Positions 1,766 to 14,889 of a stretch of DNA of 64,000 bases are shown here, piece by piece (the stretch's first letter is position 1; every line of letters begins with the position of its first letter). Source of the DNA: Fibrobacterota bacterium (GTDB lineage Bacteria > Fibrobacterota > Fibrobacteria > UBA11236); contig JAEKLQ010000021.1 in NCBI GenBank assembly GCA_019509785.1, positions 80,082 to 144,081 of the forward strand. The letters are read 5' to 3'. The notes under the pieces are model-generated. The model saw only the letters and a program-made list of their open reading frames with translations. It made no database searches and had not been told where the DNA came from. The translations under genes and the position numbers were made by a program.

Positions 1766-2179
1766 TTTTGCCTCTTCTAAAGTCAGATCAGGTGTTGAGT
1801 ACGAAATTATAGGCAACATTCCCGGAACCAGCAACCCATTCCTTTGATTTTTATCAGGATAATTTCGATTTAAATCGCAAATTTGAAATAACTCCCCCAC
1901 ATTCTCTCCAAAAATTGCCAAAAATCCTCGATATAGAATCGATATCAAGCGACTTATCGTCAAATATTCAATTTTAATAGGCAAATACGAGAATACCGAG
2001 ACCTTATTGAGGGCAAAAGTAGCCAGTCAAGCAGCAAAACCTCTTTTTGAACAGGAGGAAGGACCGCATTCCGACTTAAACCCGTCTCCGGGGTGCTAAT
2101 TTTCCCGTGTCGCTTTCGCGCTCCCATCTCGTCACAACCTTACACACGCATTAATGACTCGCCGAAAGGAGGAACCCGG
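1766..2179. promoter_or_regulatory. AT-rich divergent intergenic/promoter region between ilvB (-) and the ECF sigma operon (+); contains the 12-bp palindrome CGATTTAAATCG (1866-1877), a TCGATAT-N4-TCGATATC pair (1928-1946), and an AAGGAGG Shine-Dalgarno at 2166-2172
   Basis: GC content is strikingly below the ~65% window average. Palindromes and direct repeats read directly from the sequence. No long ORF with credible composition. Confidence 0.45.
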
Positions 2180-2665
2180 CTGGAACTCCGGAGTACCGAA
2201 GATCTATACCGCCGCTATGGACCTATGGTCCTGAGGCGGTGCCGGCAACTGCTGCGCGATGAAGACGCCGCCCTGGATGCGCTCCAGGACGTCTTCTCCC
2301 GCTGGCTGGAACGTGCCGGGGAAAATCCGGAATATCCATCCAGTTTCTTCTACACCATGGCGACCCGCATTTGCATCGACCGCATCCGCAGCGCCGCCGT
2401 CCGGCACCGGAGCGACGATTCGCGGCTGGAGGAGATCGCTTCGGCGGAGGATATCGAAGGCGATTCCCGCGCGCGGCGCTTGCTGGACCGGATCTTCGGG
2501 CGCCAGCATGCCAGCACGCGGGTAATGGCGGTGATGCATTACGTCGACGGGCTCTCGTACGAGGAAGTAGGGGCCGAAGTGAAACTGACGGCGGCCGGCG
2601 TGCGGCGGCGATTGCAGCGGCTGCGCGAGCACGCGGCGAAATGGAACGGGGAGGGAAAATCATGA
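2180..2665 (+). CDS. ECF-family RNA polymerase sigma-70 factor (start codon uncertain: CTG at 2180 preceded by AAGGAGG, or ATG at 2225)
   Basis: Translation shows the sigma2 region (DLYRRYGPMVLRRCRQLLRDEDAALDALQDVFSRWLE) and sigma4 HTH region (MHYVDGLSYEEVGAEVKLTAAGVRRRLQRLRE). Its stop TGA (2663-2665) overlaps the ATG (2662-2664) of the next gene. Confidence 0.8.
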   Translation: MELRSTEDLYRRYGPMVLRRCRQLLRDEDAALDALQDVFSRWLERAGENPEYPSSFFYTMATRICIDRIRSAAVRHRSDDSRLEEIASAEDIEGDSRARRLLDRIFGRQHASTRVMAVMHYVDGLSYEEVGAEVKLTAAGVRRRLQRLREHAAKWNGEGKS

Positions 2666-3531
2666 GCCCAAGGCCCATGCCGGAACAGATGTTGGAACGC
2701 TACCGATTGGGCGAATTGCCCCCGGCGGCCATGGCGGATCTGCGCGCCCGCTGCGAGGCCGATCCGGAACTGCGGGCGCGCCTGGAAGCCCTCGATCGTT
2801 CCGATGCGGCCATCCTGGCGGCGTACCCGCCCGCGGCGATGGCGCGCGACCTGCTTTCGAGAAGGGCATCGGAAAAGGATGCGGGAAGGGAAACGGGAAC
2901 GAATGCGCGGCGATCCTCGCGGGCGGGAAGTCCCGGTCGGCGGCCGGGCTTCGGCCGTAAAGCCTTATGGGCCGCGCCCTCGGGGCTGGCATTGGCCTGC
3001 GGCCTCGTGCTGGCCGTGCGCCATCTCCCCGAACCCAGTAACACGCAAGTTACGGAAAGCCCCGCGGCCTACGCGGTCCGGCTCAAAGGGTCCGATGCCG
3101 GATTGGCCATCTTCCGTAAAGCCAAGGGAGGCGCCGAGCTCTTGCCCCCGCATTCCCTGGCGAAACCGGGCGATACCCTGCAAGTCTTCTACCATAGCCG
3201 CGGACCCGCGTTCGGGGCGATTTTCTCCGTGGACGGGGCCGGGGGGGTCACCTTGCATCTTCCCGAAGAAGGCGGAACGGCGACGGCGCTGCAAACGGGC
3301 GACCTTCTGCCTTTGCCGCATGCTTATCGACTGGACCGGGCCCCGCGCCTGGAACGGTTTTTCCTGATTACGGCCCCGCGCCCTTTCTCTGTAGACGGAT
3401 TCTTGCAACAGGCCCGGGCCGCCTTCGCGGTCCGGCATGAGGCGCTCGATTCCCTGTCGGGGCTGGAAGCGGGCTTCCGCCAATATCCTTATACCTTACG
3501 CAAGCCCGGGAAGGGCGAGGGATCGAAATGA
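2662..3531 (+). CDS. Membrane-spanning anti-sigma factor (RskA/ChrR-like N-terminal anti-sigma domain, one TM helix, ~170-aa periplasmic C-terminal domain)
   Basis: N-terminus MSPRPMPEQMLERYRLGELPP matches the L-x-x-Y-x-L-G-x-L anti-sigma signature. Hydrophobic segment ALWAAPSGLALACGLVLAV. ATGA overlap with the sigma factor upstream and with the caspase gene downstream (3528-3531). Confidence 0.7.
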   Translation: MSPRPMPEQMLERYRLGELPPAAMADLRARCEADPELRARLEALDRSDAAILAAYPPAAMARDLLSRRASEKDAGRETGTNARRSSRAGSPGRRPGFGRKALWAAPSGLALACGLVLAVRHLPEPSNTQVTESPAAYAVRLKGSDAGLAIFRKAKGGAELLPPHSLAKPGDTLQVFYHSRGPAFGAIFSVDGAGGVTLHLPEEGGTATALQTGDLLPLPHAYRLDRAPRLERFFLITAPRPFSVDGFLQQARAAFAVRHEALDSLSGLEAGFRQYPYTLRKPGKGEGSK

Positions 3532-5723
3532 AGATCTCATTCCGCTCAACCGGCTACGCATTGGCCTTGGCCATCGCTGCCTTGTCCGGGATCCCGGCTT
3601 CCGTGGCCCCGGCCTCCTTTGCTTCGAAGTCCGCCGTCTCGGCGCCCGCCGGCCCGGCGTCCGCCCCTTTGCGCCGCTTCGCCTTGGCCGTTGGCGTCAA
3701 CGACGGCGGTCCCGCTCGCGTTCGCTTACGCTATGCCGGCAGCGATGCCGCCAACTTCGCCGCCGTGATGGAGCGCTTCGGCGGAGTCGCGTCGCGCGAC
3801 ATGCGCGTCTTGCGCGAACCTGGCCGTCGCGAATTCCTGGAAGCGTTGGCCTCCATGCGCTCCGCGGTGGCGGCCGCGAACGCGGCCGGGCAACGGGCGG
3901 AATTGCTGGTCTATTATTCCGGCCATTCCGACGAAGCCGGCTTGTTGCTGGGCCGCGACCGCCTGGACTATTCCGAATTCCGCTCGCGCATCGATTCCAT
4001 TCCGGCGCGCATCCGCTTGGCGGTGGTGGATGCCTGCGCTTCGGGAGCCTTGACGCGCATCAAGGGCGGGAGCCGCTTGCCGGCCTTTTCGGTGGATCAA
4101 AGTTCCAACCTCAGCGGCTATGCCTTCCTCACTTCCAGCTCGGGCGCCGAGGCCTCGCAGGAATCGGACCGCATCCGCGCCTCCTATTTCACCCACTATC
4201 TGGTTTCGGGCCTGCGCGGCGCGGCCGATCGCAATCAGGACGGGCGGGTGACCTTAGGGGAGGCCTATGCCTTCGCTTTCCAGGAGACCTTGGCGCAGAC
4301 CGAAGGCAGCCAGGCGGGGGCGCAACACCCGAGTTACGATATGCGGCTGACGGGAACGGGCGATCTCGTGCTCACCGATTTGCGCGGGACCTCGGCGGGG
4401 TTGGTGCTGGCTCCCGCCGTACATGGCCGATTGTTCGTTCGTTCCTCGGCGGGAGATCTGGTGGCCGAATTGCACAAGCAATCCGGGGCCAAGATGGAGC
4501 TCGGCTTGGAGCCCGGGATTTACGACCTGGATTTGGACCAAGGCGATTCGCTTTTCCACGCGCTCGTGAAGTTGGATACCTTGGAACATGCCCCGGTCTC
4601 CCGTGCCGACTTGAACCTCGTGGCCCGGGAAAGCACGCGGAACCGAGGGGAGGCGGGGCCGGCCGCAGCGTCCATCGGCGCCCCCGATACCGCGCCCTCC
4701 ACCGAGCCACGCGAAAAAGCAACGGCCATTCCCGCGACCTGGATCCCGGCGCGCGCGGCGGTGGTTCCTTCGCTAGGCTACCCGGGAAGCGGCGCAGGGC
4801 CGTGGTCCCATAATCTTTCCGTCAATTTGCTTTCGGGCCGGGCGCAGGACATCAACGGCCTGCAATTTTCCTTGGGTGGGAACCGGGCCGAAGGGCGGGT
4901 GGCCGGCGTCCAATTTTCGCTAATGAATTTCGCATCGGGTCCGTCCACGGGTCTTCAGTACGGGGTCCTGGCCAATGCGCAAGCGCGCAACCATACCGGT
5001 TTCCAACTCAGCTTCGTCGCCAACAACGCCGACTCCCTCACGGGCCTGCAAGCCGGGGCCATCAACCATGCGGGCCGTCTCGAAGGCGTGCAGGCCGGAG
5101 CCATCAATGCCGCCGGGATCGGGGACGGAATCCAGCTGGGAGGCCTCAACGTGGCGGAGAGTCAGCGCGGACTCCAGGCGGGTCTCGTGAACATCGCGGA
5201 CAGCTCGCGCGGATTGCAGGCGGGCCTTTTCAATTATGCGACCCATGGGGAGGGGCTCGTCCTGGGCCTCGTCAGCGTCGTCCGGAACGGGATGCATGAT
5301 GCGGAGGCGACCTTCGATGATCGCTCCATGCTGCGGACGGCCTTTCTGCTGGGGGGACCGTACAATTACAACTACTTGTCTTTCGACATGAAGGCGCGAT
5401 ATCCACGCCACTTGTGGGGAGGGAGCGCCGGGGTGGGCGTGCATATCCCCTTGGCTTATGCCTTCGTCGATTTGGATGCGGGAGGCGGCCTGGTGTTCAA
5501 CGACGTGGATTGGGATAACCAGAGTTACACCGCCCGCTTCCGTTTGATCGGCGGTTATGCGCCCAGCCGTTGGTTCAACGTCTTCGGCGGATTCACCGCC
5601 AACCTGGAGATGTGGCCCGCATCGAGATTCCCCAATCTGAACCCCGATCGGAAGGGCGAGCGTTGGGGCGACGAAATCCGGGCGGAGAAATGGCCAGGTT
5701 TCGTGGTTGGGGTGAGGATATGA
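3528..5723 (+). CDS. Secreted caspase-family (peptidase C14, orthocaspase/metacaspase-like) protein with C-terminal tandem G-[LV]-Q-x-G-x-x-N repeat module and aromatic-rich C-terminal domain
   Basis: N-terminal signal peptide (MKISFRSTGYALALAIAALSGIPASVAPA). Caspase p20-like block with catalytic His (LLVYYSGHSDEAG) and Cys (LAVVDACASGAL). About 10 tandem repeats of a ~14-aa unit (GLQAGLVNIADSSR, GLQAGLFNYATHGE, GVQAGAINAAG...). ATGA overlaps at both ends. Confidence 0.8.
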   Translation: MKISFRSTGYALALAIAALSGIPASVAPASFASKSAVSAPAGPASAPLRRFALAVGVNDGGPARVRLRYAGSDAANFAAVMERFGGVASRDMRVLREPGRREFLEALASMRSAVAAANAAGQRAELLVYYSGHSDEAGLLLGRDRLDYSEFRSRIDSIPARIRLAVVDACASGALTRIKGGSRLPAFSVDQSSNLSGYAFLTSSSGAEASQESDRIRASYFTHYLVSGLRGAADRNQDGRVTLGEAYAFAFQETLAQTEGSQAGAQHPSYDMRLTGTGDLVLTDLRGTSAGLVLAPAVHGRLFVRSSAGDLVAELHKQSGAKMELGLEPGIYDLDLDQGDSLFHALVKLDTLEHAPVSRADLNLVARESTRNRGEAGPAAASIGAPDTAPSTEPREKATAIPATWIPARAAVVPSLGYPGSGAGPWSHNLSVNLLSGRAQDINGLQFSLGGNRAEGRVAGVQFSLMNFASGPSTGLQYGVLANAQARNHTGFQLSFVANNADSLTGLQAGAINHAGRLEGVQAGAINAAGIGDGIQLGGLNVAESQRGLQAGLVNIADSSRGLQAGLFNYATHGEGLVLGLVSVVRNGMHDAEATFDDRSMLRTAFLLGGPYNYNYLSFDMKARYPRHLWGGSAGVGVHIPLAYAFVDLDAGGGLVFNDVDWDNQSYTARFRLIGGYAPSRWFNVFGGFTANLEMWPASRFPNLNPDRKGERWGDEIRAEKWPGFVVGVRI

Positions 5724-6592
5724 GAAAGCGCGTCTTGGCGGCGGCGCTTCTGGTCCTGGGCGGGTGCATCGAGAATCCCGGCGTGGATAAGGATTTGGCC
5801 GATCGGCACAATCGCCTCAGCGCCGACTTCACGGTATCGGAAGCGGCGGATCGCGTGCGGCTTCGCCTCCAGCGCACGGCCGCGGGTACCGAACTTTATC
5901 TCGCCAACCTTACCGACCAGCCCATCGATTCCCTGGATTTCTTCGCCCAGGCCTCGGATGAAGGGCCCCTGCTTTATTCCGGCGGCATAGGCGCCGGGAA
6001 TCCGGTTTTCGACGACTCCCCGGTCGCAGAATTCAACGGAAGGGTGGTGGGCCTGCAAAGCGGGATGGAAGCGGATCTCGGTCCCTTGACCGGCGCATTC
6101 CCCCGGAATCTGGATGAGGCCGACCTGATTTTCGTTACCCTGGCGGTAGACTCGATTTCGAATCCGGTCGTAAACCGGCACGTCGGATATTACTCCGGAG
6201 TCTTCACGGCCCGGGATTCAACGGGATCGGCCATCGAGGGGACCCTGCGGGGGTTGGTTTCCGATCACGGATTCCACTTCTGGTTGCGCACGGGCAGCCA
6301 TGTGTGGGGAGCCCTCAATGGGGATATCCGCGGAGACTCGGTTTATGGGATCAAATACGGCGATGCGGTGGACTATGCCAGGCGGTACGCCGCCACCACC
6401 CTCGCCGTCGCCCTGGATGCGCGCACGGATGATTCGATTGGATTCGCAGCGGTGCTCAGCGGCTTGTGGGGTCCGGGGAATTTCCTGGACCTACGCGTAA
6501 CGCTTTCCCGGTCCGATCCCCAGCGCTGGCCCCACATAACCCTTAAAGCGAACCGCGCCACGCTTCCCAATCCACCGGCGGTTGGGCCATGA
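5720..6592 (+). CDS. Hypothetical lipoprotein (lipobox LVLGGC followed by IENPGVD), paralog of the next gene
   Basis: ATG at 5720 lies inside an ATGA overlap with the caspase gene stop (5721-5723). Signal peptide plus lipobox cysteine. Shares motifs with the next ORF (ENPG[VL]D, VRLRL[QE]R, ELYLANL/RLYLENL, DSL[DE]F, EADLGPL[TA]G, LDLR[VI]xL[SA]RS). Confidence 0.6.
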   Translation: MRKRVLAAALLVLGGCIENPGVDKDLADRHNRLSADFTVSEAADRVRLRLQRTAAGTELYLANLTDQPIDSLDFFAQASDEGPLLYSGGIGAGNPVFDDSPVAEFNGRVVGLQSGMEADLGPLTGAFPRNLDEADLIFVTLAVDSISNPVVNRHVGYYSGVFTARDSTGSAIEGTLRGLVSDHGFHFWLRTGSHVWGALNGDIRGDSVYGIKYGDAVDYARRYAATTLAVALDARTDDSIGFAAVLSGLWGPGNFLDLRVTLSRSDPQRWPHITLKANRATLPNPPAVGP

Positions 6593-7479
6593 AGGCGGCG
6601 TTAGCGGCGGTGGCCCTTTTAGGATTTTCCGCCTGCCTCGAGAATCCGGGTTTGGACTGGGGGCTGGAGAACAAGCAAGACCTGGCCCGCCGGGAATTCG
6701 ACGTGAACGGAAATAGCGTGCGCGTCCGTCTCGAGCGCAGGAATGGCGAAACCCGCCTCTATCTCGAGAACCTGGATCGAAAGGATCTGGATTCCCTGGA
6801 GTTCGCGATCCAGGTTTGCCCGGACCAGGCGATGTTCGCGATCGCCCAACCATATTATCCGGGGCCGATGCAATTGGTCTACTGCGCCGATCCCATCGCT
6901 GAACCCCATGGCACGGCCATCCGCCTGCCTGGCCGCTCCGAAGCCGACTTGGGCCCCTTGGCGGGAGATTACCCGGAAGAACTGAATCGGGTCGGCATCG
7001 CTTTCGTTCCGCTCCGCGATACGCGTAACTCGCCGCGACTCGGAAGCGATCGCTTCGGTTATTACCAAGGAACATGGTTGGAGAACCAAATTAAGGCCGC
7101 GCCCAGATCGGGCTCGCTACGCGGATTTATCCTCCGTGACGGTTATTTCTTGTTTCTGCTCCGGGAAGCCGGTGTGTATTACGGCCCCTTAAGGGGCGTC
7201 CTGGCCGGTGATTCATTGATCGATGCCTACTATCTGACCAATTGGGAATACCACCAGGCTGAGGCGTTGACGGATCCGGCCCACCCTCCGGCCCTCCTCC
7301 TTCCCGCGGCCGGGTCCCCGGATTCGCTCGGGTTCACGGGTCGTTTCATCGTCCATTTCCTTCCAGGACGTCCCGATACCCTGGACCTGCGGATTGCCCT
7401 GGCGCGTTCCGCCGGCCTCGAATGGCCCAAGCCTGTGGCCGCGATCGATTCCGATCTTCCCGCGTCGAATCCGAAGTGA
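6589..7479 (+). CDS. Hypothetical lipoprotein (lipobox LLGFSAC followed by LENPGLD), tandem paralog of the previous gene
   Basis: ATGA overlap (6589-6592) with the preceding gene. Signal peptide plus lipobox. Collinear conserved motifs with the previous ORF, ~30% identity by eye. Confidence 0.6.
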   Translation: MKAALAAVALLGFSACLENPGLDWGLENKQDLARREFDVNGNSVRVRLERRNGETRLYLENLDRKDLDSLEFAIQVCPDQAMFAIAQPYYPGPMQLVYCADPIAEPHGTAIRLPGRSEADLGPLAGDYPEELNRVGIAFVPLRDTRNSPRLGSDRFGYYQGTWLENQIKAAPRSGSLRGFILRDGYFLFLLREAGVYYGPLRGVLAGDSLIDAYYLTNWEYHQAEALTDPAHPPALLLPAAGSPDSLGFTGRFIVHFLPGRPDTLDLRIALARSAGLEWPKPVAAIDSDLPASNPK

Positions 7480-7577: not shown

Positions 7578-8249
7578 ATGCAAACCCTTAAAGACCTATC
7601 CCCCGCCGATTGGCCCCGTGAAAAGCTGATGGAGCGGGGCCCCGGACATCTGTCGAATGCCGAACTGTTGGCCGTAGTATTGGGCCGCGGCCAGCCCGGC
7701 AAGGACGTACTCACCCTGGCTGGCGAAGTGGTGGAAACGTTATCCGGCCTGGAAGACGAGTTGACCCTGGACACCTTGCTGGAAATCAAAGGCATCGGCC
7801 TGGGCAAGGGCTGCCAGATCCTCGCCAGTATCGAGTTCTCGCGGCGTTTCCTCACGGCGCGAAAGAAGCTGAAGGTGCGCACGCCCAAGGATGCTCTGCC
7901 CTTGCTCGGGGCGTTGCGCGCGGCCGCGCAGGAGTGCGTGGTGGTGCTCACCCTGGACGGCAACAACCAGATCATCAAGTCGCATACCATCACGCGCGGG
8001 CTCGCCAACCAAAGCCAAATCCATCCGCGGGAAACCTTCTATCCGGCCATCCAGGACCGGGCCGTGAGCATCCTGGTGGCGCACAACCATCCTTCGGGAA
8101 ACCTGGAGCCTTCGGAAGCCGATTTGATCGCGACGCGGCGATTGGTGGAGGTCTCGAAGACCTTGGGGATCCCGGTGCTGGATCACCTCATCGTGGCGGA
8201 GGGCGGGTTCTTGTCGATCCGGGAGAAGTATCCGGCTTATTTCGGCTGA
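7578..8249 (+). CDS. radC: RadC-family JAB/MPN (JAMM) domain protein (UPF0758)
   Basis: JAMM motif HNHPSGNLEPSEADLIATRRL, N-terminal HhH-like LSNAELLAVVLGRG. AAAGGAG RBS upstream of the ATG at 7578. Confidence 0.85.
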   Translation: MQTLKDLSPADWPREKLMERGPGHLSNAELLAVVLGRGQPGKDVLTLAGEVVETLSGLEDELTLDTLLEIKGIGLGKGCQILASIEFSRRFLTARKKLKVRTPKDALPLLGALRAAAQECVVVLTLDGNNQIIKSHTITRGLANQSQIHPRETFYPAIQDRAVSILVAHNHPSGNLEPSEADLIATRRLVEVSKTLGIPVLDHLIVAEGGFLSIREKYPAYFG

Positions 8250-8280
8250 GCGCTCAGGGAGGTATCGTGCCGTTCGGCGA

Positions 8281-8302
8281 CGCCTCAGACCGGGCTGAGG
8301 CG
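8281..8302. terminator. Candidate bidirectional terminator hairpin between convergent radC and the tlpA-like gene (CGCCTCAG-accggg-CTGAGGCG, 8-bp perfect stem)
   Basis: Inverted repeat read directly from the sequence, located in the 55-bp gap between two convergent stop codons. No strong U-tract. Confidence 0.5.
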
Positions 8303-8304
8303 CA

Positions 8305-9198
8305 TCAGAGGTATTCCTTGATCCACTTCTCGATGTCGCGCTGTTGATGCAGCCCCACCTCCATGCGCTGGATGACGCCTTGCTTATCGATCACCGCCAA
8401 GGTCGGGAAGGCGAGGGCCTGGTATTGGTTGGTCGTGATGTGGCCGATATCGTTGAAGAGCGGATAGGAAAGCTTGGCGGTGGACTGGAAGGCCTTCAGA
8501 TCCGGAAGGCTTTCCGAACTCACGCCGATGATCTCGAGGCCTTTGCCATGGTACTTCTTGTAGACCGCATCCAGGATGGGCAGCGACATGCGGCAGGGGC
8601 CGCACCAGGTGGCCCAGAAGTCCACCAGTACCACCTTGCCCTTGTTCTGCGCCAGCGCGCCGGCGTCGCCGGAGTAGTATTTCCCGTCGAGCGCGGGCGC
8701 GGGGCCTCCCACCAGCATCTGGGTGATGACGCGCATGTCTTCCGGCTTCGGGGAGAGGGCCATCTTCTGCTTGAAGGCTTTGCCATCGCGGCCCACGCGC
8801 AGTTCCACCATTTCGCCTACGCCTTTGGAATGGATGGTATCCAATAGGGTCTTGCGGCCATGCAGGTCGGTCGCGTTGATGGAGAGGATGAAGTCCCCTT
8901 CCTTGAGGCCGGCTTGATCGGCGGAGGTACCGCGGAAAACCTGCTGGACCTTGACCACGCCTTCGGCCGTGGTAGGCGCGTAGGCGGCGGGAATCTCGTT
9001 TTGGGGGACATCGGCGATGGCCACGCCGAGCCAGGCGGATGGCTTTTTTGCCGCCTGGGTCGGCGATGCAGCGGGCGCGTCGGGGACGACCGTTGCCCCG
9101 ACCGAGGCCGGAGCCGAAGCGGGATCGGTCGATTTATGGGCGGAACCCGCCGCGGCAATGCATCCGAGGAAGGCGATGAAGAGGCCCAAACGCGACAT
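8305..9198 (-). CDS. TlpA-like thiol:disulfide oxidoreductase lipoprotein with PDZ domain (thioredoxin fold, WCGPC active site)
   Basis: Signal peptide/lipobox (LFIAFLGC), PDZ-like block ([16 protein letters not shown]), thioredoxin motif [19 protein letters not shown]. Confidence 0.8.
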
Positions 9199-10314: not shown

Positions 10315-11337
<1,023 letters not shown>

Positions 11338-12681: not shown

Positions 12682-14889
12682 TCAGCGCGGGTTCCAGACG
12701 AAGATCGAGTTGCGCATGCCGCCTTGCGTCTGCACGCTGATCAGATAGCGACCGCGGCCCAAGGCCCGGCCGTTCGCATCGCGGCCGTCCCATGTCCATC
12801 GCCCCATTTCCCGAGCCAGGCGGCCGGGACGGTATTCGAATACCACGCGCCCTTGCAGATCGAAGATGCGGATGACCCCCACGTGGGCGGGATGCTTCCA
12901 ATCCAGATACAGGAAGCCCCCGCGGATGGAGAGATCGAAGCGCGGATTCGTATTCTCCTCTTCCGCCATGCGCGACAGCTTTGTGGTGATGACGTTGTCC
13001 TGGCTCGCGGCCTGCGGATGGGCCGCGAGGAAGGCGGTGTATTGGCTAAGCACCTCATACTCGATGGACAAAGAAGTTATCGCTTGCTGATTGGCGTTCC
13101 CGGTCCCCTGTTGCAAGCTCAATTGCCCAATCTTCTCGCGGGCCCATAGCTTCGGCACCGCCCAGGCCATCGCGTCCTCCGCGCCGAAATCGACGGCATG
13201 CGCGAAAGAGACCGGCTGCCCTTGCTTATAGCCCTTTACCGTAATGGTATGCGGCCCGGTTCCGGAAAATTTGCCGCTCAAGCGGTAAGGCAGGCCCCGG
13301 TATAAGCGCGCGGAGGTCGGGTAGAGGACGTCGGAAACCTCCAGGCCCCCGAAATCCACCGTCAGGTTGTCGAGTTGAGGCGCTTCCAACCGGCTCCAGG
13401 CCGCTTCCACAAGGGGGGCCACGGAATCGCCCGAGACCAGGGGGGTAGCGAAGCCGTTACCCACCTTGGCGCATTCCTCCAGGAAATAACGGTTGAGATT
13501 GTCGCCCGCCCCGAAGGTGAATATGGTGGGCTTGGAGGGATGCTGGGAAATGGCCTGCAGGACGGCCTCTTCATTGGTGATGAACCCGTCGGTGAGGAAG
13601 ACATAGTACCGCTGCTTGTCGGAATGGGTCGGCACCGCGAGGGTCTTATTCACGGCGTCCAGGAGCTGGGTGCTGCCGCCCGCGGTAAGCCCCCGCAGGA
13701 AATTCCCCGCGATCGCCTGGTTGGCCGCGGTGGCCGGGACCGGCGTCTCCGATCCGAAGGCATAGGTCACGCCGTCGTTGAAAGCCAGCAAGTCGATGTT
13801 ATCGTCAGCGGTGAGGCGCGACAGGATGTTAAGAACGATCTCCTTTTCCCGCGCTAAGGGCCAGCCATCCTGCGAGCCGGAGATATCCACCAGAATGACC
13901 AATTCCATGGGTCCTCTTTGGCCCGCGAAGGCGGCGGTGTCGGGATACAGGTTGAGCATGAAATACCCCTGGCCTTTCGCATCCGCGGAAACCGCCAGGG
14001 AGAAATCCGAAGCCGTCCGGGCGCGCTTGAGGCGCAGTACGTAATCCCGGTTCGGGTAGGTGGCAGCCGTCTGCAACATCACGGAGCGCGTATAAGCCAA
14101 GGAGGGATTATCCGAAATGGACAACACCCCCCGATCCTGCAAGGTCATGCGGGTATCGGCCAGGGTCCCGACGGTTATGGCATGGGACGGGGAGTAGATG
14201 CCGGCGAGGTCCAAGCCCGATTCTACGAGCACGTTGAACTGGAACTCCGGCCCCGATCGATCCTCGGGGGGATTCCAGGGCCCGCTCCCGGCTCCCGCCC
14301 CCGTGCCGTAGCGCGGCCCGATGCGGGTCGGGAACGCCAATTCCAATTCCCCATCCACGTATTTCAGGGGCATGGACAGCTTTATCTCGACCAAAGCCGT
14401 GTCGTTCGGCCCCAAGGTGGCGATGCTCTGTTGGAAGATGTTCGGCTTATCCTGTATCAATAAGGCGGCCTGCCCGCCCTGGTTCTTGATGGAATCGTAA
14501 ATCCCCTGCGCCTTCCCCTTCTCCATGATGGTCGCGACGTAGACCGAGTCCTTGTACTGGTACTTCATCCCGTGTACGGCTCCCTGATCGGGAAGCGGGA
14601 ACAGGTAGACGGTTTCCGTCTTGGCCCGGAAAGGATTCACGAAGCGCTGGGTGACCACCACCTGGGCGATGGCGTCGGTGATGACCACGTTGACGCGGGT
14701 GAAAGACGGGGAGACCGCGACTTGTTGCTTGGTGTCTGGATCGATCATCCCGACCATGGGACCATGCAGGGAGTCGAGGGGGATCTGGCCCAGGGCCGTG
14801 CCGACCGCGGCCGAAACGACGAAGATAAGGATGAGCATGCGGATGGCGGCGCGGCGGATCATGCGGGCTCCCGGTCGGGGTTTACGCAT
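12682..14889 (-). CDS. Secreted VIT (vault inter-alpha-trypsin) + von Willebrand factor A domain protein with FlgD-Ig/T9SS-like C-terminal sorting domain
   Basis: Signal peptide. VIT-like N-terminal region. vWA MIDAS-like block VILVDISGSQDG...LTDGFITN. C-terminal ~75 aa (VIRIFDLQGRVVFEY...WTWDGRDANGRALGRGRYLISVQ) matches the por-secretion-tail / FlgD-Ig-like pattern. Confidence 0.8.
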   Translation of the reverse strand: MRKPRPGARMIRRAAIRMLILIFVVSAAVGTALGQIPLDSLHGPMVGMIDPDTKQQVAVSPSFTRVNVVITDAIAQVVVTQRFVNPFRAKTETVYLFPLPDQGAVHGMKYQYKDSVYVATIMEKGKAQGIYDSIKNQGGQAALLIQDKPNIFQQSIATLGPNDTALVEIKLSMPLKYVDGELELAFPTRIGPRYGTGAGAGSGPWNPPEDRSGPEFQFNVLVESGLDLAGIYSPSHAITVGTLADTRMTLQDRGVLSISDNPSLAYTRSVMLQTAATYPNRDYVLRLKRARTASDFSLAVSADAKGQGYFMLNLYPDTAAFAGQRGPMELVILVDISGSQDGWPLAREKEIVLNILSRLTADDNIDLLAFNDGVTYAFGSETPVPATAANQAIAGNFLRGLTAGGSTQLLDAVNKTLAVPTHSDKQRYYVFLTDGFITNEEAVLQAISQHPSKPTIFTFGAGDNLNRYFLEECAKVGNGFATPLVSGDSVAPLVEAAWSRLEAPQLDNLTVDFGGLEVSDVLYPTSARLYRGLPYRLSGKFSGTGPHTITVKGYKQGQPVSFAHAVDFGAEDAMAWAVPKLWAREKIGQLSLQQGTGNANQQAITSLSIEYEVLSQYTAFLAAHPQAASQDNVITTKLSRMAEEENTNPRFDLSIRGGFLYLDWKHPAHVGVIRIFDLQGRVVFEYRPGRLAREMGRWTWDGRDANGRALGRGRYLISVQTQGGMRNSIFVWNPR

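Follow-up and report, generated by a model that had tools for sequence, protein, structure and literature searches.

Two tandem open reading frames (ORFs), lipo1 and lipo2, were studied in a stretch of DNA of 64,000 nucleotides from a Fibrobacterota bacterium (GenBank assembly GCA_019509785.1, contig JAEKLQ010000021.1, positions 80,082 to 144,081 of the forward strand), which as a whole is called the window below. They encode paralogous lipoproteins of a new small family, here called ENPG, and are joined by overlapping stop and start codons to the gene of a caspase-like protease, which itself follows the genes of a sigma factor of the extracytoplasmic function (ECF) type and a membrane anti-sigma factor (Table 1). 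The predicted function is that of accessory parts of a stress-signalling module, and this is probably what lipo1 and lipo2 are. The more specific proposal that they are lineage-specific accessory subunits, either sensors or regulators, of the periplasmic caspase/ECF module is made tentatively and is given somewhat less than an even chance.

An earlier annotation made by a model from the letters of the window, the sequence-only reading, had described the two ORFs as tandem paralogs, and BLASTP bears this out with 32% identity over 274 residues (E-value 4e-34), a similarity far beyond chance that is collinear, beginning at the lipobox and reaching as far as the C-terminal LDLR..L.RS motif. The lipobox directly followed by an [IL]ENPG motif, claimed for both N-termini, is read as MRKRVLAAALLVLGG-C-IENPGVD in lipo1 and as MKAALAAVALLGFSA-C-LENPGLD in lipo2, and both N-termini carry positive charge, a hydrophobic stretch and then the lipobox, LGG/C in lipo1 and FSA/C in lipo2. 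The family column statistics, the Pfam check and the lipo2 structure model are all based on an alignment of 39 sequences, in which a signal peptide, a lipobox and, in 97% of the members, the cysteine were found as in lipoproteins processed by signal peptidase II, so that lipidation is predicted. The mean top-residue frequency of the octapeptide Cys16-Asp23 is 0.82 in this alignment, against 0.13-0.46 elsewhere, and further well-conserved columns are D70-S71, G121, G156, Y158, G160, G174, G178 and G184. From their sequences both proteins are predicted to be outer-membrane lipoproteins, presumably in the inner leaflet.

The octapeptide, referred to as the tether, was restricted to the ENPG family throughout the DNA regions examined. 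A genome-wide scan of 596 Gb for the motif returned 19 stretches, with three confirmed relatives that all come from metagenome-assembled genomes of Fibrobacterota, and a motif-pattern scan of the metagenome collection returned 15 stretches and no confirmed relative. ENPGxD as a general lipoprotein sorting signal was therefore rejected, being confined to one family and so rare in the 596 Gb. Asp23 of the tether as a cleavage site of the caspase was likewise unsupported, the active site of the protease being D-A-C-A-S-G and no conserved basic residue following the motif. D-A-C-A-S-G is an orthocaspase/metacaspase-type motif, and such enzymes are expected to be specific for Arg/Lys. These observations bear on the idea that lipo1 and lipo2 are substrates, the cleavage of which would set a fragment free or eliminate a structural lipoprotein. 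Presumed co-expression with the protease is the single point in its favour. The conserved charged residues of the tether are acidic, against the Arg/Lys specificity of orthocaspases, and the exposed low-confidence loops of the models hold no conserved basic or acidic cleavage site, conservation being found instead in glycines, aromatic residues and the tether. Most systems with this protease would, moreover, lack the substrate, and this explanation is regarded as highly improbable.

The start of lipo1 does lie inside the caspase stop codon, as the sequence-only reading had it. The junction reads ATGA at 5720-5723, with the ATG at 5720-5722 over the TGA at 5721-5723. The lipo1/lipo2 junction at 6589-6592 has the same form (lipo2 ATG 6589-6591 over lipo1 stop 6590-6592), and ATGA is also read where sigma meets anti-sigma (2662-2665) and where anti-sigma meets caspase (3528-3531). 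By these four successive overlaps the five genes, from sigma through anti-sigma and caspase to lipo1 and lipo2, are tightly coupled into a single unit, and since each junction of the operon is an ATGA overlap, lipo1 and lipo2 would be translated in step with the caspase. GC content is even across the five-gene unit, and a gap of 98 nt separates lipo2 from the following RadC gene. Promoter and terminator scans gave nothing better than shuffled sequence, and a PADLOC scan of all five operon proteins matched no family, that is, no known anti-phage defence component.

The coupling to the caspase gene extends to the rest of the family. In 13/13 family loci with upstream DNA the lipoprotein gene begins within the stop codon of the caspase/barrel gene, with 4 nt shared, and all ten junctions for which the DNA sequence was at hand read ATGA. 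The linked loci are L001-L004, L012, L085-L087 and the contigs of P0003, P0022, P0034, P0035, P0041 and P0042, where P0022 is the same as L086, P0041 as L087 and P0017 as L085. In the last of these the 51 bases upstream of the lipoprotein encode DDIRAERWTGFFLGVRL and then a stop. Profile search and neighbourhood check together thus show that the homologs do co-occur with C14 caspase genes. Two outcomes had been named beforehand as fatal to the sequence-only reading, two ORFs without significant similarity and homologs never found beside caspase or ECF genes, and neither was observed.

The product of the caspase gene matches Pfam Peptidase_C14 above the gathering score (E-value 4e-07), and its catalytic dyad, His133 and Cys170, is unchanged throughout 40 homologs. 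It is laid out as a signal peptide, the C14 domain, a beta-rich middle, LA_2272-type repeats (five stretches by NCBIfam) and a C-terminal region of about 140 residues. No description of the function of LA_2272 repeats was found in the literature searched. The C-terminal region (residues ~590-731, window 5280-5720) has no Pfam match. The C-termini of the 40 homologs show alternating hydrophobic residues and a final F, I, L or Y (for instance ..YPGLLLGLQI, ..WPGFVVGVRI and ..FAGVRLF), which is the pattern of the beta-signal of outer-membrane proteins, and the region is probably a small outer-membrane barrel that serves as an anchor. With a size of about 140 residues only a small barrel with both ends facing the periplasm is possible, and the caspase would hence be a periplasmic enzyme tethered to the outer membrane. 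Its signal peptide and beta-signal would place it in the same periplasm as the DUF4384 domain of the anti-sigma factor and the inner-leaflet lipoproteins. For the anti-sigma protein, matches to the NCBIfam anti-sigma models stay under the cutoffs and the one to Pfam DUF4384 is weak (E-value 0.0054); a weak DUF4384 match is also recorded in the precomputed annotation of its ortholog in L086. DUF4384 is often fused to protease domains and is the C-terminal domain of some Csx30 proteins (bioRxiv 10.1101/2022.08.17.504292). The true start of the sigma gene, judged from the N-termini of homologs, is probably at about 2180.

A metagenome scan with the caspase alignment gave 363 confirmed relatives, and synteny was counted among 80 of these (L005-L084). 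The anti-sigma gene precedes the caspase gene in 61/61 loci where the DNA reaches far enough, and a sigma gene does so in 48/48 loci with at least 1700 nt upstream. These counts make the triad of sigma, anti-sigma and caspase a widespread and strictly syntenic module, no description of which was found in the literature searched. Directly behind the caspase/barrel gene, 12 of the 67 metagenome loci with at least 400 nt downstream, belonging to a different clade of high GC content, encode a lipoprotein of about 150 residues unrelated to the ENPG family. It has a lipobox (..ASVSC/GS), a Pro/Gly-rich linker and a Cys-rich C-terminal domain. The loci are L011 (2299-2748), L013, L022, L026, L028, L034, L036, L046, L053, L058, L068 and L070. 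The remaining triad loci have varied downstream genes, such as a well-conserved same-strand gene of 337 residues, or genes that are convergent. Lipoproteins thus recur in the place after the caspase without being universal there, and the position is filled by unrelated proteins.

The caspases are 57-84% identical between lineages, against only 20-33% between the lipoproteins across the linked loci, and by sequence the caspase core is conserved and the lipoprotein a variable add-on. Copy number varies as well. Two lipoprotein genes are present in the window, in L003 (7104-8831) and in L002 (879-2571), and one is present in L004 and in L001, where it is of the lipo2 type and directly behind the caspase gene. 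The members of a pair are 32% identical in the window, about 42% in the readable part of L002 and 45% in L003, more in each case than to copies at other loci. Since the pairs within a locus are closest to each other, repeated duplication or gene conversion, plus loss, is indicated; of the tandem duplication proposed earlier the paralogy stands, and a single duplication event is too simple. Over the first 25 mature residues the two L003 copies do not differ at all, which is suggestive of a recent duplication or gene conversion. The locus L012 is the closest relative of the window in the data, with a caspase 84% identical to that of the window, and in the place of the lipoproteins it has an ORF remnant of 106 residues (8031-8351) with a degenerate motif, CLDNLGP, and internal deletions. 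The ATGA overlap with the caspase stop is retained in L012, and RadC comes next.

The AlphaFold2 (AF2) model of lipo1, made from six sequences, has two all-beta domains at a predicted local distance difference test score (pLDDT) of 70 and a predicted template modelling score (pTM) of 0.69, and the lipo2 model from the 39 sequences reaches a pLDDT of 87 and a pTM of 0.80. In both, a beta-sandwich is followed by a predicted eight-stranded up-and-down barrel of the soluble kind, and the N-terminal half is better conserved than the fast-evolving barrel half. Residues 21-30 of the lipo2 model, just past the motif, have a pLDDT of 86. These residues are confidently placed, so the lipid anchor would sit directly against the folded domain without a long linker. 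The idea of the N-domain as a decoy copied from the DUF4384 domain of the anti-sigma factor or from the middle domain of the caspase was rejected, and homology of the family to these two proteins of the operon was excluded, as hhalign gave probabilities of 0.1% for the family profile against 47 anti-sigma sequences and 1.9% against 40 caspase proteins.

A Foldseek search of the PDB with the models returned the TbpB C-lobe as the sole match below an E-value of 0.001, with low TM-scores of 0.26-0.32, and further listed HpuA, NHBA, LbpB and PmSLP. The predicted fold class is known and generic, and no specific homology is demonstrated by it. Lipoproteins of the TbpB/HpuA type are surface receptors, and lipo1 and lipo2 could in the same way be moved by flipping to the outside of the cell, there to bind a ligand from the surroundings, with the neighbouring outer-membrane protein as partner or anchor. 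The match to the TbpB C-lobe, which has a handle and a barrel, is in favour of this idea, as is the high sequence variability, which is typical of surface lipoproteins. The TM-scores speak against it, and the tether is short and conserved and not a long flexible anchor. The neighbourhood in the window and the related loci consists of sigma, anti-sigma, C14 caspase, RadC and PDZ-thioredoxin genes, without a Slam (DUF560), TonB-dependent receptor or SusC-like gene, and the C-terminal domain of the caspase, at about 140 residues, appears too small for a translocon. A surface receptor is accordingly considered very unlikely.

In the proposed mechanism the ECF sigma factor, the membrane anti-sigma factor with its periplasmic DUF4384 domain and the caspase would form a conserved envelope signalling module. 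The tether, C-[IL]-E-N-P-G-x-D, and the N-terminal half would hold the lipoprotein at the inner face of the outer membrane beside the barrel anchor of the caspase, while the fast-evolving barrel half would bind a signal, either a ligand or a state of the envelope. Binding would alter the access of the caspase to the periplasmic domain of the anti-sigma factor, or its activity on it, and the altered action of the caspase on the anti-sigma factor would control the release of the sigma factor. The reading as accessory subunits is favoured because a conserved core is combined with a variable lipoprotein, and a conserved anchor-proximal peptide and N-terminal half with a fast-changing barrel. It is favoured also because an unrelated lipoprotein shares the downstream position in another clade, and because a sandwich with an eight-stranded barrel is what is predicted here and is found in ligand- or protein-binding lipoproteins (TbpB lobe, HpuA, NHBA). 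A wider version would have the triad as a widespread and undescribed trans-envelope pathway, the caspase as the site-1 protease acting on the anti-sigma factor and the ENPG lipoproteins as the sensor subunits of Fibrobacterota. The tether would then dock on the membrane anchor of the caspase, arranged with the small barrel in a way that may resemble RcsF, and other clades would have recruited unrelated lipoproteins for the same job. This version is a speculative one and is considered unlikely.

Several points weigh against the lipoproteins as accessory subunits. Among the 67 metagenome loci an ENPG match downstream of the triad was found in one, the remnant in L012; the other 66 are without an ENPG lipoprotein, and this absence together with the decay in L012 implies that the lipoprotein is not needed for the core mechanism. 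Contact of the lipoproteins with the caspase is inferred, as are the direction of regulation and the cleavage of the anti-sigma factor by the caspase. The linked loci all belong to one phylum and share RadC and PDZ-thioredoxin downstream, so the cases are not independent, and with this conserved wider synteny the 13/13 linkage could partly reflect vertical inheritance.

The same absences bear on the explanation that lipo1 and lipo2 are cognate inhibitors or holding chaperones, which by stoichiometric binding keep the periplasmic caspase inactive until a signal removes them. Their genes lie immediately 3' of the protease gene and are translationally coupled to it, and the C-terminal domain is predicted to be an eight-stranded barrel, as in staphostatins and AprI/Inh, which are eight-stranded barrel inhibitors encoded directly beside their proteases. 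An obligatory inhibitor or chaperone is hard to square with a decayed copy in L012 and with triad loci that have none, and is unlikely on these grounds; for inhibitors or chaperones altogether the chance is judged to be small. Dispensability is, on the other hand, accounted for if the lipoproteins are outputs of the module, that is, outer-membrane lipoproteins induced by stress through the sigma factor, which bind hydrophobic molecules or molecules derived from the envelope, in the manner of Blc or YceI/BcnA, and are co-transcribed as the last genes of an ECF operon that regulates itself. Left unexplained by this are the family-specific lipid-proximal peptide as the most conserved feature and the unrelated lipoprotein that recurs behind the caspase in another clade, and the 4-nt overlap with the caspase gene is retained at every locus. 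The output explanation is therefore held to be doubtful, and lipo1 and lipo2 as accessory subunits remain the preferred reading.

The ENPG family is small. In public data lipo1 has an exact match, the hypothetical protein JF616_01090 of a Fibrobacteres bacterium, and lipo2 has an ortholog, P0005, that is 56% identical. Word-indexed homology searches found five close relatives only, and the family was revealed by an exhaustive profile search over 1.84 billion cluster representatives, which returned 45 proteins at an E-value of at most 0.001. Apart from fragments and three spurious-looking repeat proteins, the members are 250-300 residues long and have the lipobox and then C-[IL]-E-N-P-G-x-D, and all genomes that could be identified belong to Fibrobacterota. 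The three long repeat proteins (P0019, P0038 and P0046) are weak profile matches with what look like beta-sandwich repeats of the pre-peptidase C-terminal (PPC) or cadherin type, and were treated as non-members. The matches of P0038 and P0046 cover profile positions ~25-125, and by eye their repeats resemble PPC domains. The N-terminal sandwich of the lipoproteins might be distantly PPC-like, a likeness that no family scan confirmed.

No family name had come up in the sequence-only reading, and none was found here, as neither lipoprotein matches Pfam (E-value at most 0.1), NCBIfam or PADLOC. Pfam on the 39 family members at E-values up to 10 gave no consistent match, the family profile against PDB sequences gave only nanobody and designed-Ig noise at E-values of 0.02 or worse, and the literature searched held no description of an ENPG lipoprotein family. 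The fold class was known before, and so was, in general terms, the notion of an envelope protease with an accessory lipoprotein next to it.

To our knowledge, almost nothing has been established on what bacterial caspase homologs do in the cell envelope. If lipo1 and lipo2 are input or regulatory subunits, they offer a handle on a large and uncharacterised class of bacterial caspase systems, of which the 363 metagenome matches are a measure, and an operon with a defined protease, anti-sigma factor and accessory lipoprotein makes the caspase testable as a signal-sensing envelope-stress protease. The conservation of the anchor-proximal peptide is unusual for lipoproteins, and the peptide could be a docking or sorting element. 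If the lipoproteins are merely co-transcribed outputs, the finding reduces to a new domain family restricted to one phylum.

The locus is flanked in the window by a long ORF on the minus strand (34-1764), which is conserved in L004, and on the other side by RadC (7578-8249, plus strand), a PDZ-thioredoxin protein (8305-9198, minus strand) and an OmpA-family protein with Asp-rich repeats (10315-11337, minus strand). The same neighbours are seen again in L001 and L004, and in L002 and on the contigs of P0034 and P0035 those of the downstream side alone recur, by which the module occupies a fixed chromosomal site in this Fibrobacterota clade. Further downstream, at 12682-14889 on the minus strand, a secreted protein of 735 residues is encoded that by eye looks like a VIT/vWA-type protein with a C-terminal tail resembling a sorting domain.

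Table 1. Genes of the five-gene unit and predicted parts of the two lipoproteins. Coordinates are window positions; lipo1 and lipo2 are the ORFs so named in the text.
Feature	Position	Strand	Basis or remark
ECF sigma-70 family factor	2093..2665	+	Pfam Sigma70_r2 (E 3.9e-12), Sigma70_ECF, Sigma70_r4_2
Membrane anti-sigma factor, periplasmic DUF4384-like domain	2662..3531	+	Weak profile matches; ATGA over sigma stop
Secreted caspase-like protease, C14, His133/Cys170	3528..5723	+	Pfam Peptidase_C14, NCBIfam LA_2272_repeat
lipo1, ENPG-family lipoprotein, 290 aa	5720..6592	+	ATG overlaps caspase stop
lipo1 Cys16 (predicted lipidation) and tether C-I-E-N-P-G-V-D	5765..5788	+	Most conserved family segment
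lipo1 N-terminal beta-sandwich (predicted), aa 32-141	5813..6142	+	AF2 secondary structure; conserved DS, DLG motifs
lipo1 C-terminal eight-stranded up-and-down beta-barrel (predicted), aa 156-264	6185..6511	+	
lipo2, paralogous ENPG-family lipoprotein, 296 aa	6589..7479	+	ATG overlaps lipo1 stop
lipo2 Cys16 (predicted lipidation) and tether C-L-E-N-P-G-L-D	6634..6657	+	Motif, conservation
lipo2 N-terminal beta-sandwich (predicted), aa 32-144	6682..7020	+	AF2 model
lipo2 C-terminal eight-stranded beta-barrel (predicted), aa 157-273	7057..7407	+	

Compared with TbpB, LbpB, HpuA and NHBA, in which a handle is combined with an eight-stranded barrel, the ENPG proteins are without sequence similarity (no match in Pfam or among PDB sequences), and the long flexible anchor peptide of that group contrasts with their short invariant tether, their caspase partner and their restriction to Fibrobacterota. 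With staphostatins and AprI/Inh they have in common the eight-stranded barrel, the gene adjacent to a protease and co-transcription. A barrel predicted by the models is indeed encoded beside the protease with an overlap in 13/13 loci. Staphostatin and Inh were not among the top structural matches, and neither family matched the ENPG proteins, which differ from them as two-domain lipoproteins whose gene is lacking or can be done without at loci that keep this caspase intact. In the proposed logic, an accessory protein, periplasmic or anchored in the outer membrane, that would gate a periplasmic protease or an anti-sigma pathway, the closest analogies may be the outer-membrane lipoprotein adaptors of periplasmic proteases, NlpI-Prc and LbcA-CtpA, and the accessory sensors of envelope stress, RseB/MucB, RcsF and NlpE. 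These systems have other folds (TPR, LolA-like and further ones) and are not homologous, and their proteases are serine or PDZ proteases and not caspases.

For the triad, as distinct from the lipoproteins, there is a likeness to the Type III-E CRISPR Craspase (Csx29, Csx30, RpoE), since both couple a caspase-like protease to an ECF-type sigma factor. In Craspase the link to sigma is made by cleavage of a sigma-binding protein, the caspase-like Csx29 cleaving Csx30 as part of a pathway with an ECF-type sigma factor in it (bioRxiv 10.1101/2022.08.17.504292). Craspase works in the cytoplasm under RNA guidance, with a TPR-CHAT protease and without lipoproteins or an outer-membrane anchor. With Blc and YceI/BcnA the ENPG proteins share a generic barrel similarity only, without a lipocalin or YceI match in Pfam or NCBIfam, and add to it an N-terminal domain, a conserved tether and a strict coupling to the caspase gene.

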